IMG/VR virus record: IMGVR_UViG_3300033076_000920
Span: 1-58,059 of that record
Source of the DNA: a virus
Lineage: Duplodnaviria > Caudoviricetes
DNA length: 58,059 bases
Reading direction: 5' to 3' (one strand)
Shown here piece after piece: positions 5,625-34,278 of the stretch (its first letter is position 1; the number at the start of each line of letters is the position of its first letter). The notes below the pieces were generated by a model that was not told where the DNA came from, searched no databases, and saw nothing but the letters and a program-made list of their open reading frames with translations. The translations under genes were made by a program, and so were the position numbers.

Positions 5625-6973
5625 TCCAGCTGCATCACGGCGACTGTCTAGACGTGCTCCGCACCATGCCAGACGCCAGCGTCGACGCCATCGTGACCGA
5701 CCCTCCGTACGGCCTGCGCTTCATGGGGAAGAAGTGGGATTACGACGTGCCCACCGTCGAGGTGTGGGCCGAGTGCCTGCGGGTGCTCAAGCCTGGCGGT
5801 CACTTGCTTGCGTTCGCTGGCACCAGGACGCAGCACCGGATGGCGGTGCGGATTGAGGATGCAGGCTTTGAGATCCGCGACATGATCGCCTGGGTCTACG
5901 GGTCGGGGTTCCCGAAGTCGATGGATGTCTCGAAGGCGATCGACAAGATGGACGCTGTTGAAGAGCAACGGGCGCGTCGGTTCAGGTTCACCGCATGGGT
6001 GCGCAGCACTGGCGTTACCTCGCGGCAGATCGACGAGGCCACGGGCACCAACATGGGCGGCCACTACACGACGGCAGCAAGCCAGCCGGCGATTATGACG
6101 CGCGAGCACTTGGAAGCGTGTCGGATGTTCCTTGGAGACATCCCCGAATGGGTCGAGCGCGAGTGCGACATCCGCAGCGTGGAAAGCCGGAACATGGCCG
6201 AGCGCGATGTACTCGCAAAAAAAACGAAACGACTAACTGAGCGAAGCACATGGGCAACGCATGTTGACGGCGGGATGTTTCGCGTCGGAGAAAAAACATG
6301 GAACATCACCGCCCCTGCCACCTCCGAGGCCAAGCAATGGCAAGGCTGGGGCACCGCGCTGAAGCCCGCCCTGGAGCCGATCACCATGGCCCGCAAGCCG
6401 CTGGATGGCGCCGTGGCCGCGAACGTGCTGCAGTGGGGGACTGGGGGGATCAATGTGGACGGGTGCAGAGTGGAAATGGGGAGCGAATACGACCCGAAGA
6501 AAATGCAGCGCCAGAAAAAAAGCGAAGGATCGATTGTAGGCGCTTTCGGCGCGGCCTCGTTGATAGGGAAAGAGATCCCTAAGTACAAACCGGGCGGTCG
6601 CTGGCCCTCCAATTTGCTGCACGACGGCAGCGAGGAGGTGGTGAGGTTGTTTCCGGGTGCTGGAAAAGAAAGCGCCGCCCGCTTCTTCTACACCGCCAAG
6701 GCCGATGCGACAGACCGAAACGATGGGCTCTCACCAGGCGAACGTAACGCACACCCAACGGTCAAGCCGGTTGACCTGATGTGCTACTTGTGCCGACTCG
6801 TAACGCCGCCAGGTGGCATCGTGCTCGACCCATTCATGGGCAGTGGCAGCACCGGCAAGGCATGCGTGACTGAGGGGTTCAGCTTCATCGGAATCGAGCG
6901 AGACGCCGACAGTTTCGCGACCGCGCAAGCGCGCGTGGTATCGCCGATGCCACTGTTCAAGGATGTGCTGTGA
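5621..6973 (+). CDS. N4-C/N6-A DNA methyltransferase (beta class) with a long internal insertion
   Basis: HGDCL, TDPPY catalytic motif, HPTVKP, VLDPFMGSGSTG SAM motif; start MIQLH at 5621. Confidence 0.93.
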   Translation: MIQLHHGDCLDVLRTMPDASVDAIVTDPPYGLRFMGKKWDYDVPTVEVWAECLRVLKPGGHLLAFAGTRTQHRMAVRIEDAGFEIRDMIAWVYGSGFPKSMDVSKAIDKMDAVEEQRARRFRFTAWVRSTGVTSRQIDEATGTNMGGHYTTAASQPAIMTREHLEACRMFLGDIPEWVERECDIRSVESRNMAERDVLAKKTKRLTERSTWATHVDGGMFRVGEKTWNITAPATSEAKQWQGWGTALKPALEPITMARKPLDGAVAANVLQWGTGGINVDGCRVEMGSEYDPKKMQRQKKSEGSIVGAFGAASLIGKEIPKYKPGGRWPSNLLHDGSEEVVRLFPGAGKESAARFFYTAKADATDRNDGLSPGERNAHPTVKPVDLMCYLCRLVTPPGGIVLDPFMGSGSTGKACVTEGFSFIGIERDADSFATAQARVVSPMPLFKDVL

Positions 6974-7788
6974 TGACCTACGCCGCACGCATTCTCGCCG
7001 ACAGTCTCGCGCCGAGTGGCGTGCGGCTCACGACGTTCGAGGTGTGCTTCCCGCGCTTTATCCTGGCCGAGTGGAACACCCACCGCATGCTCTCGCGCAA
7101 CGCTGCGAGTTCGCGCGCGATCCCCGTGCGCAAGCTGCTTGAGCAGGTCGAGACCGAGCCCTTCATCCCCGAGTACTGGGGAGCCAACAGGCCAGGCATG
7201 CAGGCCACCGAGGAGCTCCCCGAGCGCGACGCAGCAGACGCCCGCGCGACGTGGCTGCAGGCCCGCGACGCAGCGTGTGACCACGCGCGCGTGCTCATGA
7301 GCCTCGGCGCGCACAAGCAGCTCGCCAACAGGCTGCTCGAGCCGTTCACGTGGTGCACCGTCATCGTGTCGTCGACCACGTGGGACAACCTGTTCGCGCT
7401 GCGATGCCACGCCGACGCACAGCCAGAGTTCCGCAAAATCGCCTGCATGATGCGCGACGAGCTAGGCATCTCGACGCCACGAGCGCTCGCCATCGGCGAC
7501 TGGCACTTGCCGCTCGCGCCAGACGTCGACGAGCTGCAGGCCGAGGGCTACACCATCGACGAGCGCGCGCGCATCTCTGCCGCCAGGTGCGCTCGCGTCT
7601 CGTACCTTACCCACGACGGCAAGCGCGTGCCTGCCACCGACCTAGAGCTCGCGCGTAGGCTGCTCGAGGCTGGCCACATGAGCCCGTTCGAGCACGTCGC
7701 TCAGCCCAGCAGCCAAGAGCACACGCGCAGCGGTAACTTTCACGGCTGGTATCAGTACAGAAAGCGCCTGGAAAACCGCGCTCTGTAA
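6970..7788 (+). CDS. thyX: Flavin-dependent thymidylate synthase
   Basis: EWNTHRMLSRNAASSRA ThyX signature, HKQLANRLLEPF, CARVSY, HMSPFEH. Confidence 0.92.
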   Translation: MMTYAARILADSLAPSGVRLTTFEVCFPRFILAEWNTHRMLSRNAASSRAIPVRKLLEQVETEPFIPEYWGANRPGMQATEELPERDAADARATWLQARDAACDHARVLMSLGAHKQLANRLLEPFTWCTVIVSSTTWDNLFALRCHADAQPEFRKIACMMRDELGISTPRALAIGDWHLPLAPDVDELQAEGYTIDERARISAARCARVSYLTHDGKRVPATDLELARRLLEAGHMSPFEHVAQPSSQEHTRSGNFHGWYQYRKRLENRAL

Positions 7789-7816
7789 CAATCGACATCG
7801 GGCGTGTAAAAAAGAC

Positions 7817-7892
7817 TTGCGCGCTGCGCTGGCTGCGCTATTGTCTCTCTTGTCGACACCCCGAGCGGGACGACACAACAAGGAGAGACATC
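7817..7892 (+). promoter_or_regulatory. Promoter plus conserved hairpin leader, copy 1
   Basis: TTGCGC-16-TATTGT, then GACACCCCGAGCGGGACGACACAACAAGGAG before ATG 7893. Confidence 0.7.
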
Positions 7893-8024
7893 ATGAAGCG
7901 CGGCGATAAGATTGTGGTTTGCGGCGTCAACGGTCGATATGTGGGCACCAGGGCCGGAGTGCAGTGGATCTGCTACGATGGCCAAGACTACGAGGCAATG
8001 TGCGCTGCGTTTGACGCGCGCTAG
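7893..8024 (+). CDS. 43-aa small protein absent from the ORF track (MKRGDKIVVCG...AFDAR)
   Basis: AAGGAG RBS, follows leader copy 1, open from ATG 7893 to TAG 8024. Confidence 0.7.
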   Translation: MKRGDKIVVCGVNGRYVGTRAGVQWICYDGQDYEAMCAAFDAR

Positions 8025-8073
8025 GCCGAAACCCCGCAAGGGGTCGCACCGTCAAGCGGTGCATGACGAGGCC
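8024..8073 (+). ncRNA. Type II hammerhead-ribozyme-like RNA with A at core position 3
   Basis: GGCC-GAAA-CCCC(GCAA)GGGG-UC-GCACCG(UCAAG)CGGUGC-AUGACGA-GGCC: three perfect stems, GAAAC and GUC core; CUGANGA reads AUGACGA. Confidence 0.72.
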
Positions 8074-8083
8074 AGCGACCACG

Positions 8084-8119
8084 GACACCCCACAGAGGGA
8101 CCGCGACAACCAGGAGACA
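8084..8119 (+). repeat. Conserved hairpin leader, copy 2 (no adjacent promoter; follows the hammerhead)
   Basis: GACACCCCACAGAGGGACCGCGACAACCAGGAG. Confidence 0.75.
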
Positions 8120-8125
8120 ATGACC

Positions 8126-8308
8126 ATGATCATCAGCGTTCGAGCAAATCAACTGCGAGTCGGCGACAAGCTCGTCGCCATCGAGTACGTGTATAACGAG
8201 AAGATCACCAAGCTCACCACGCTGCCCAACGGCAGCGTCGAGATCACCATGGGCCGCGGGCGCGTGCGCACCGTCGCCTCCAGCACCGAGTGCGAGGTGT
8301 CGCGATGA
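8126..8308 (+). CDS. Small beta-rich (SH3/KOW-like) hypothetical protein
   Basis: GGAG 9 nt upstream of ATG 8126; ANQLRVGDKL motif. Confidence 0.65.
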   Translation: MIISVRANQLRVGDKLVAIEYVYNEKITKLTTLPNGSVEITMGRGRVRTVASSTECEVSR

Positions 8309-8685
8309 GCGCCGCCGCCCTGCAACCCAGCGACCAGCTGTGGGCCGAGATGCGCCGCGCCGGTCAGCTGTTCTTCAGCGTCGGCTACCCCTATCACAGC
8401 ACCTACCTCGCGCAGCCCGAGCGCGCTGGATTCGTTCTCTACCGAAACGAGTGGGGACAGGTGCTCATGAGCATCGTGGGCCCCTCGAGGGGCAAGCGGC
8501 AGTGGCAAAAGACGGTGGTCGAGGGCTGGCGCCAGGCCCTTGAGACCATCCCAGCCGACCTGTTCGCGTGGGGCCCGCTCTTGCGCGACTTCGGCGACTA
8601 CGGCACCACCATGGCCTTGCACAAGCTCGGGCGCATCAGCGCGTGCGATACGCGCGTGGCCATCGCGGAGATGACGCGGGCTTGA
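8305..8685 (+). CDS. Hypothetical protein
   Basis: ATGA overlap with the upstream gene; phage-like codon usage. Confidence 0.65.
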   Translation: MSAAALQPSDQLWAEMRRAGQLFFSVGYPYHSTYLAQPERAGFVLYRNEWGQVLMSIVGPSRGKRQWQKTVVEGWRQALETIPADLFAWGPLLRDFGDYGTTMALHKLGRISACDTRVAIAEMTRA

Positions 8686-8756
8686 CAACACCTCTCACGC
8701 GAGATACATCACGACCACGCCGACACCCCACGAGGGACGGCCACAACGGAGACACC
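8682..8756 (+). promoter_or_regulatory. Promoter plus conserved hairpin leader, copy 3
   Basis: TTGACA-17-TACATC, then GACACCCCACGAGGGACGGCCACAACGGAG before ATG 8757. Confidence 0.7.
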
Positions 8757-10575: not shown

Positions 10576-10654
10576 TTGCGCATCTCAACCGATGCGCTAT
10601 TGTCTCTCTCGTCGACACCCCGAGCGGGACGACAACAACCAAGGAGCCGACACC
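10576..10654 (+). promoter_or_regulatory. Promoter plus conserved hairpin leader, copy 4
   Basis: TTGCGC-16-TATTGT as in copy 1, then GACACCCCGAGCGGGACGACAACAACCAAGGAG. Confidence 0.72.
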
Positions 10655-10864
10655 ATGAAGAATGCAGCCGCCGCCGCCATCGCCCGTAAGATGCTCAAGA
10701 TCGACATCGACGCCTGGAAGCGTGAGGGATTCCACGGCAAGATGAGCACCGACTGCGAGTGGGCCGATCGAACCATCTGCGAGCTCGTGGGCCGCAAGAT
10801 GCGCGAGCAGAGCCTGAGCGACGTGCGCCGCGCCTACGAGAGCATCATGCGCTCGATGGCTTGA
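10655..10864 (+). CDS. Small hypothetical early protein
   Basis: AAGGAG RBS in leader copy 4; start MKNAAA. Confidence 0.7.
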   Translation: MKNAAAAAIARKMLKIDIDAWKREGFHGKMSTDCEWADRTICELVGRKMREQSLSDVRRAYESIMRSMA

Positions 10865-10937
10865 CTTCAGCAGCCGCTAAGCTACTATCTCACCAACGGA
10901 CACCCCGAGCGGGACCGCGACAACCAGGAGACCGACC
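10861..10937 (+). promoter_or_regulatory. Promoter plus conserved hairpin leader, copy 5
   Basis: TTGACT-16-TACTAT, then GACACCCCGAGCGGGACCGCGACAACCAGGAG. Confidence 0.75.
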
Positions 10938-11339
10938 ATGGACAAGCTCAGCATCCGCAACCACGTGTACGCCAGCTTCAGCTACGCTCACAAGCCGAGC
11001 AAGAGCATCACGCCCTGGGAGCAGCGCCTCGCGCCCAATACTGGCAGCACGTACTGCGACGAACCGCGCGACGCGGTCATCTCGACCACCGTCGTCATCG
11101 ACAACCCAGTCACCGGCTACGGGGTCGAGTACGAGGTGCTAGTGTGCGCCGACTACGAGCCCGCCCAGCGTGGTGGCTGGGATGATCCCTCATGGGAGGC
11201 CCACTGGCACTCGCCCGAGGCGTGGTACTACCGCCCTGGCCGCGGCTGGAAGCGCCTCGAGCTCGACAAGCGCGCCGAGGCGCAGCTCATCGCCGAGCTC
11301 GACCGCGAGGCCGAGTACCGGCGCAACTACCGCGACTGA
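10938..11339 (+). CDS. Hypothetical early protein
   Basis: RBS in leader copy 5; followed by a terminator-like hairpin. Confidence 0.72.
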   Translation: MDKLSIRNHVYASFSYAHKPSKSITPWEQRLAPNTGSTYCDEPRDAVISTTVVIDNPVTGYGVEYEVLVCADYEPAQRGGWDDPSWEAHWHSPEAWYYRPGRGWKRLELDKRAEAQLIAELDREAEYRRNYRD

Positions 11340-33868: not shown

Positions 33869-34278
33869 CAGAAGGGCCTCGTGCGCTCGAGCGTCCGCAG
33901 CATCAGGTGCATGCGAAACGGGCGGCTCGTGTCGATGTCCACAAGCTCGTAACGGCGTGTGCCGTTGTTGCCGATGACCAAGAAGAACAGCTCCTGATTG
34001 CTGTTCATCGTCGGCCGGACGTCAGCGTACGTGTAACCCACGCCGAGCATGTTGGGCGTGATGGGCCCCACGTCTACTTCGTTGCCAGACATCATCTCGC
34101 GAGCCTTTGGCAACGGATGAAACTCAAGCACGTCGTCGGTGTACGTGCCGAGGTTGACGCCTGGTCCTGTCCACGTGCGCACCACACGTTGCACGATGTT
34201 CGTTCGCACGCCGAGCTGTTCGGGGATAGCTCGGATGCCGTCGATCTCTGGGATGAGACCATCGCGAAGCGTGGTCAT
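33868..34278 (-). CDS. Head-closure protein (probable)
   Basis: Size and position. Confidence 0.5.
   Translation of the reverse strand: MTTLRDGLIPEIDGIRAIPEQLGVRTNIVQRVVRTWTGPGVNLGTYTDDVLEFHPLPKAREMMSGNEVDVGPITPNMLGVGYTYADVRPTMNSNQELFFLVIGNNGTRRYELVDIDTSRPFRMHLMLRTLERTRPF

Follow-up and report, generated by a model that had tools for sequence, protein, structure and literature searches.

Type II hammerhead ribozymes are common in bacteria and occur near prophage genes, where the processing of long phage transcripts into single-gene mRNAs has been proposed as one possibility (PMC3088659). Their core matches the consensus almost without exception; C3 pairs with G8, and the only natural covariation described there for this pair is U3-A8 (PMC3088659). 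The stretch of viral DNA analysed here (58,059 nucleotides of an IMG/VR virus record estimated to be 78% complete; hereafter the window) carries between two small early genes a hammerhead-like fold whose core reads AUGACGA, with an A in the place of C3. This raises the question of whether the element is a variant that still cleaves, an ordinary hammerhead that has been damaged, a sequence error or no ribozyme at all. We consider it probable that this is an ordinary intercistronic type II hammerhead with a recent private C3A lesion, most likely crippled or much slowed.

Anatomy of the element

All elements of a type II hammerhead are in place on the + strand between 8024 and 8073, and they depart from the consensus solely at core position 3, which is A8063:

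8024-8027, + strand: stem II, 3'-side strand in hammerhead numbering, GGCC, with C8027 as C11.1 (sequence, fold and alignment to the family model R1, see below)
8028-8031, + strand: core GAAA, that is G12 A13 A14 A15.1 (sequence; invariant in 35 of 35 family members)
8031-8044, + strand: stem III hairpin, made up of CCCC/GGGG around a GCAA tetraloop and of the A15.1-U16.1 pair (8031/8044) (sequence)
8032-8043, + strand: CCCC-GCAA-GGGG, followed by UC at 8044-8045 (sequence)
8045/8046, + strand: predicted scissile bond between C17 (8045) and G1.1 (8046), inferred from the consensus geometry and the RF02276 alignment
8046-8062, + strand: stem I hairpin GCACCG/CGGUGC with loop UCAAG (sequence and fold; compensatory changes in the family at 6 of 6 pairs)
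8063-8069, + strand: core AUGACGA, with A8063 in the place of C3 and U4 G5 A6 N7 G8 A9 canonical (sequence)
8070-8073, + strand: stem II, 5'-side strand GGCC, with G8070 as G10.1 pairing with C8027 as C11.1 (sequence and fold)

The cleavage triplet G8043 U8044 C8045 fits N-U-H, as H17 is not G, and the core strand G12 A13 A14 is followed by the A15.1-U16.1 pair between A8031 and U8044. Six of the seven positions of the other core strand (C3 U4 G5 A6 N7 G8 A9) fit and only position 3 fails. In the minimum free energy fold, stem I and stem III are both closed and stem II is open with the G10.1-C11.1 pair, which is the helix order of type II. The preliminary description of this locus had mapped the same elements around the AUGACGA core, and its map holds on the + strand. 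Its further details likewise agree: the element starts on the stop codon of the 43-aa gene (the first G of stem II is the last base of TAG 8022-8024), the cut is predicted to fall after C8045 and a leader copy lies 38 nt further on at 8084. A shifted register with C8062 as C3 was set aside; it would add an extra A inside the core and lose one pair of stem I.

The fold is a three-way junction of -32.8 kcal/mol (z = -2.38), and 4 of 200 shuffled sequences fold equally well. Such an energy is modest and by itself proves nothing for a hammerhead at this site. Stem II could be extended in the fold by pairing AGCG (8074-8077) with CGCU (8019-8022), leaving A8023 bulged. Most type II copies, though not all, possess a pseudoknot between loop I and the 3' tail (PMC3088659). 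Inspection by eye of loop I UCAAG against the 3' tail AGCGACCACGGACACC gave no complement of at least 4 pairs, and hence no readable pseudoknot in the window. The short loop I (5 nt) and the missing pseudoknot set the element apart from typical type II copies in a typical, not a defining, feature (PMC3088659), and loop I is equally short in the 32 short-loop rows of our family alignment.

A8063 is derived and private to this strain

A counterpart of the locus was found in the IMG/VR record L073, which is about 97% identical to the window around the element and holds the same hammerhead with CUGACGA. The two differ at 11 of 350 nt upstream, at 1 of 50 inside the element and at 16 of 317 nt downstream, and the sole difference inside the element is the C for A8063. 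One change in 50 matches the background divergence and is compatible with a neutral change, tolerated or harmful alike. The metagenome contigs L137 and L138 of the same lineage also have C at this position, and so has an unrelated phage, L126, whose stem I is identical and whose core is otherwise the same.

Further copies of the locus came from Logan contigs of four sequencing runs (X1-X4) placed on 7600-8600, bearing in mind that contigs hide minority alleles. The other three runs, from three other studies, all read C at 8063, at full depth (X2, 7.38 of 7.38; X3, 47.6 of 47.6 in two contigs; X4, 11.6 of 11.6). In X2 the contig runs collinear with the window and shares its gene order but has C at 8063; thus A8063 is not tied to the local rearrangement. 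X2 and the window differ at 21 of 956 bases, none of them within 8070-8077 among the differences listed. The longer stem II was considered as a compensation for A3 and rejected, given the C in the collinear X2; its origin appears to lie in the junction of a local deletion rather than in an answer to A3. Nor does the window hold a compensating change at G8. The suggestion of the preliminary description that the core might be a natural variant fares poorly against these comparisons, with C at the same site in L073, L137, L138, X2, X3 and X4 and an unaltered G8. A8063 looks like one recent private substitution in an otherwise invariant core base.

The substitution also creates an ATG (8063-8065) in frame with the downstream gene, which would formally give an ORF at 8063-8308 with an N-terminal extension of 19 or 21 codons. 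No Shine-Dalgarno sequence was seen upstream of this ATG, which sits at the 3' edge of stem I, and the new start codon is probably irrelevant.

What an A at position 3 would do

Published data on the C3-G8 pair point to a strong defect. In a comprehensive mutagenesis, swapping the pair (C3G/G8C) rescued activity (PMC9901934), whereas unpaired changes at C3 or G8 left activity lost or low (PMC9901934, PMC11167929). C3G or G8C alone abolished cleavage and the double mutant restored part of it (PMC11167929). No figure for C3A itself was found in PMC9901934 or PMC11167929.

Natural departures from the core are on record. A6C in phage Bcep176 has low but measurable activity, and insertions beside C3 in the haloviruses HF1 and HF2 keep low activity, with a mapped 5' end within 3 nt of the cut (PMC3088659). 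These variants and the U3-A8 covariants resemble our element in being intergenic, in having one core departure and in lying closely upstream of a start codon in an early region. However, U3-A8 keeps the 3/8 pair, whereas A3/G8 in the window does not (PMC3088659). A3 with G8 is absent from the variants named as active in section 8 and the accompanying passages of PMC3088659; Figure S7 of that paper presents inactive look-alikes, including one from a Xanthomonas phage, which may bear on the A3/G8 combination.

We also examined the variability of position 3 among phage hammerheads. All 46 of the 46 type II copies that share the stem III of the window have C3, and a scan for non-C3 cores anchored on this stem III matched 7 loci, none of which (0 of 7) was a real type II variant. 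A second scan of IMG/VR used a fixed geometry (any stem III, a 17-nt stem I hairpin and a non-C at position 3) and gave 15 loci, of which 5 were chance matches without stems and 10 had intact stems. The intact ones comprised nine U3 copies, a single A3 copy (L143) and no G3 copy, as against at least 129 loci of the same geometry with C3, several phages having 4-7 copies each. By this count, A3 makes up about 1% or less of the geometry, an upper bound as the C3 count is a minimum, and the window is not unique. Position 3 is, in these genomes, not absolutely fixed, as L143 and the nine U3 copies illustrate.

The U3 copies (L139, L140, L142, L144, L145, L146, L149, L152, L153) have the core UUGAYGA and perfect stems. 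They share with the window the geometry, the intact stems, the intercistronic setting and the non-C at position 3, as does L143. They differ from the window in that U3 can wobble-pair with G8 and that U3 recurs and is kept in diverged copies (e.g. L142 versus L144/L152). One of them, L139, lies a few hundred nt from the C3 copy L167 in the same phage. Thus, besides the window, L143 is the one A3 copy in the short-loop subfamily. It has an AUGAUGA core, flawless stems and the usual setting between a stop codon and a Shine-Dalgarno sequence, but was found in one contig only.

The best surviving alternative, favored in the preliminary description but doubtful in our view, is an attenuated but working ribozyme, in which the A3 core would cleave at a useful rate with the help of tertiary contacts and stable stems, leading to slower or conditional processing of the early transcript. 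In its favor, all other core and stem features are intact, L143 provides a second, independent A3 copy with perfect stems in a normal intercistronic context, U3 faces G8 in nine loci, and the Bcep176 and HF1/HF2 cores keep low activity despite their departures (PMC3088659). Against it, the A is private to one strain while six other holders of the locus, including the collinear X2, keep C; G8 shows no compensating change; L143 stands on a single contig; and unpaired C3/G8 changes are reported to be inactive or low (PMC9901934, PMC11167929). That the A3 core is a tolerated, still-active natural variant, with slow but useful cleavage despite the A3/G8 mismatch thanks to strong stems, seems to us quite unlikely. 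If true, two independent A3 copies, in the window and in L143, would join the recurrent U3 copies in widening the accepted hammerhead core. They would also point to tunable 'slow' ribozymes that determine how much early mRNA stays bicistronic relative to how much is processed before the shared leader.

A sequence error at 8063 is very improbable

If the true base at 8063 were C, the element would be an ordinary hammerhead, and a base-calling or assembly error might be suspected given that all relatives read C and that the record is itself a metagenome assembly. The preliminary description had called for a check on exactly this point. The remaining run, X1, yielded a 4301-nt contig with a mean depth of 24.5 that shows zero differences from the window over 7663-8600 (938 nt) and reads A at 8063. 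The sampled words are present in X1 to a fraction of 0.99, and the window may have been assembled from this very sample; the X1 contig was made by a different assembler, so that, if X1 is the source, it provides a second assembler and not a second sample. With this agreement an error becomes very improbable, and A8063 is, by these comparisons, not an assembly slip but a derived base private to this strain.

Membership in a family of short-loop phage hammerheads

Relatives of the element were collected from IMG/VR with the 18-nt stem III stretch (8028-8045) as bait. The exact stretch is present in at least 122 loci, and 129 occurrences were sorted by the place of CUGANGA. In 49 of them CUGANGA stands downstream of the GUC at a distance of 10-50 nt; with at least 4 pairs in stem I and at least 2 in stem II, 45 of the 49 are type II. 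CUGANGA lies upstream in 71 occurrences, which are type I-like. The remaining 9 have neither arrangement and comprise seven type I-like copies with CCGANGA, one type II copy with G5A (L104) and one sequence that is no hammerhead. The type I-like loci with CCGAUGA or CCGACGA (L017, L028, L033, L051, L081, L096 and also L060) have the same stem III and come from several contigs; they may represent a natural U4C core variant in phages.

Thirty-five distinct type II hammerheads were aligned for a covariance model (R1), from which the window and its close relative L073 were left out on purpose. With the hammerhead structure imposed, 99.2% of the cells are paired and 8 of 15 pairs have changes on both sides, figures that are affected by a pairing filter which removed 4 of the 49 candidates before alignment. 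Sliding the partners reduced the paired cells to 29-45%. The covariation score was reached by 0 of 500 shuffles and the count of compensatory pairs by 12 of 500. Stems I and II covary across the family, while stem III is invariant because it served as bait. R1 matched the window with 71.6 bits (rough E 1.3e-19), a score to be read with the caveat that the sequences of the model had been collected through the 18-nt stem III stretch; it is the single match in 58 kb on both strands and aligns with no non-standard pair. For comparison, L073 scored 76.2 bits.

Rfam gave a different picture. No match was obtained for the whole window at the gathering threshold. A permissive search of 201 nt with Hammerhead_II (RF02276) aligned end to end at 8024-8081, but with 16.3 bits against a cut-off of 37 (E 0.59). 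The canonical sister L073 also stays below 37 with 22.6 bits, and this is why we lay the low score of the window to its short-loop subclass. Copies with the same stem III but longer loops pass the cut-off (L013, 45.5 bits; L047, 42.5 bits), while the short-loop L005 (30.1 bits) and L126 (27.9 bits) fall below it, and the canonical L010, L016 and L110 are absent from the RF02276 matches altogether. A score below the cut-off is on this evidence a property of the short-loop subclass and not a sign that a hammerhead is absent, with A8063 costing a few extra bits. A separate RF02276 search of the record of the window listed weak matches at 11164-11181 (13.7 bits) and 33911-33991 (13 bits) and did not list 8024, but at that threshold 11 of 14 control genomes were also matched, rendering such matches uninformative. 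The site at 33911-33991 was rejected as a hammerhead, since its sequence is unlike one by eye and R1 has no match there.

The element agrees with RF02276 and the type II hammerheads of Perreault et al. 2011 (PMC3088659) in GAAA, the GUC triplet, the A15.1-U16.1 and G10.1-C11.1 pairs, UGANGA and its intergenic place in a phage, and departs from RF02276 in the A at core position 3. Moreover, the same locus in L073, L137, L138, X2, X3 and X4 carries CUGACGA. It is this homology, and not the fold energy, that counters a chance likeness. Thus, we regard the element as a genuine member of a widespread lineage of phage type II hammerheads, within a short-loop I intercistronic subfamily; the earlier assignment to a type II hammerhead in a phage early region is upheld by both the layout and the R1 score. 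That the two GC-rich hairpins instead terminate transcription, are cut by an RNase or bind a protein, and resemble a hammerhead by chance, is barely credible: the absence of an Rfam match at the gathering threshold, the 16.3 bits and the fold z of -2.38 would fit such a reading, but the family-specific score, the orthologous copies with a full consensus core, the covarying stems I and II and the failure of canonical L073 at the same cut-off all stand against it, and a terminator is further contradicted by the lack of a T-run and of any terminator-like site at 8024-8100.

The subfamily has a consistent genomic setting. In 34 of 36 copies, no more than 16 nt separate the start of the element from the stop codon of a preceding open frame (at least 40 codons). 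Downstream, 35 of 36 have a Shine-Dalgarno sequence with a start codon, the median distance from stem II being 23 nt. In some IMG/VR phages (L157-L160, L178-L180, L188), 4-7 type II hammerheads of the short-loop kind lie in a few kb of one phage, with four of them in less than 1 kb in L188; such clusters fit reports of ribozymes flanking single small genes.

Gene setting and the shared leader

Upstream of the element, the window encodes a DNA methyltransferase and a ThyX thymidylate synthase. In a collection of named phages, 7 records matched, in the ThyX gene only and at 60-80% identity, and no close relative of the window was found there. A close relative, G001 (L134), is without the DNA methyltransferase gene, its tblastn matches breaking off near 5625 and resuming near 6813. 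None of the three small proteins that surround the element matches a PHROG family. The features surrounding the hammerhead are:

7817-7844, + strand: promoter-like site TTGCGC-16 nt-TATTGT (by eye; below the thresholds of the consensus scan)
7855-7871, + strand: leader copy 1, GACACCCC-GAGC-GGGAC; small hairpin, a few nt downstream of the probable start of transcription
7893-8024, + strand: 43-aa ORF with TAG stop at 8022-8024 (ORF list; conserved in L073, no PHROG family)
8084-8101, + strand: leader copy 2, GACACCCC-ACAGA-GGGAC, lacking a preceding promoter-like site and located 38 nt downstream of the predicted cut
8120-8308, + strand: downstream small gene (ORF list; conserved in L073, no PHROG family)
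8722-8738, 10614-10630 and 10899-10915: further leader copies (sequence)

The start of the downstream gene may be either ATG 8120 or ATG 8126, the latter being better spaced from AGGAG at 8112-8116. All five leader copies consist of GACACCCC, 4-5 nt and GGGAC, followed by an AGGAG-type ribosome-binding site, and precede small early genes. Since the copies differ in the loop (GAGC, ACAGA, ACGA) but retain the CCC/GGG stem, the leader is probably a 5'-proximal hairpin, for which mRNA stabilisation or protein binding are possible roles. Promoter-like hexamers precede four of the five copies by eye, and those of the 7817-7844 site recur before the copy at 10614. In a consensus promoter scan only the site at 10861-10888 passes. 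The copy at 8084 had been described earlier as the only leader without its own promoter, and this stands, with the reservation that hexamers before the other four were recognised by eye and that one site passed the scan. No terminator-like site was seen between 7817 and 8126, and no T-run follows the element. The putative promoter at 7817-7844 would drive the 43-aa gene, the hammerhead and the next gene as one transcript.

A hammerhead followed by a promoter-less leader copy occurs in three gene arrangements, namely in the window, in L073/L137 and in L138. In L073 and L137, another leader copy follows the hammerhead after 4 nt, together with an extra small ORF, and an additional promoter-like site (TTGACA..TAAGTC, by eye from the alignment) is present that is missing in the window. 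The underlying indel of about 250 nt lies directly after the hammerhead (junction at 8074 in the window; 655-900 in L073). L138 represents a third form in which the start of the extra ORF is fused to the downstream gene of the window. The early region thus appears to be a mosaic of small cassettes of promoter, leader and gene.

Two further observations concern the leaders. A relative without the 43-aa gene and the hammerhead was suggested by a joint of 7854 to 8082 in X4, with a shorter side of 21 nt, and by a loose end at 8082 in X3, and was rejected, as this evidence is too weak to count because the leaders are repeated. The GAAACCCCGCAAGGGGUC of the hammerhead (8028-8045) matches the leader pattern GACACCCCNNNNNGGGAC with 2 mismatches; this resemblance may be chance, and 1 of 100 shuffles gave as many pattern matches.

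A candidate role and its probable impairment in one strain

From this arrangement we propose the following scheme. In the canonical relatives (CUGACGA), the ribozyme would cut the early transcript after C17. The mRNA of the 43-aa gene would then close with the stem III hairpin and carry a 2',3'-cyclic phosphate, and the downstream mRNA would open with a 5'-OH where the stem I hairpin starts, shortly before the shared leader. A canonical ribozyme would in this way separate the two cistrons and supply the promoter-less gene with a defined 5' end of its own, in the manner of a natural insulator. The hairpin near the 5' end after the cut would be comparable to the state of the promoter-driven leaders. 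In the strain of the window, A8063 in the place of C3 disrupts the C3-G8 pair, on which the positioning of G8 depends, and as nothing compensates, strongly reduced or lost cleavage is to be expected, which would leave both genes on one bicistronic mRNA. Such an RNA would still allow translation of the downstream gene, and this would explain why the lesion is tolerated.

Synthetic ribozyme insulators of the RiboJ type are engineered type III hammerhead devices. The likeness to them is one of function only, in that a hammerhead before a leader would cut off the upstream context and leave a fixed 5' end that starts with a hairpin. The arrangement in the window differs in being natural, of type II, and probably impaired in its cut in this strain.

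Our favored reading is therefore an ordinary phage hammerhead with a private lesion and not a new ribozyme class or variant. It draws attention to a large short-loop subfamily of phage type II hammerheads that falls below the Rfam cut-off even when canonical, so that annotation at the gathering threshold would miss such copies. The window and its relatives (L073, and X2 in the same gene order) further constitute a natural experiment, C3A in an otherwise identical ribozyme, and this natural C3/A3 pair offers a direct test of what position 3 is worth in a tertiary-stabilised type II context. The recurrence of a hammerhead followed by an otherwise promoter-following leader in three gene arrangements suggests that intercistronic phage hammerheads may provide a defined, hairpin-capped 5' end for a gene without a promoter. 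In a review, the role of bacterial and phage hammerheads is still described as unsettled, and that of intercistronic phage copies as open (PMC6765202); the architecture found here offers a concrete candidate for it.
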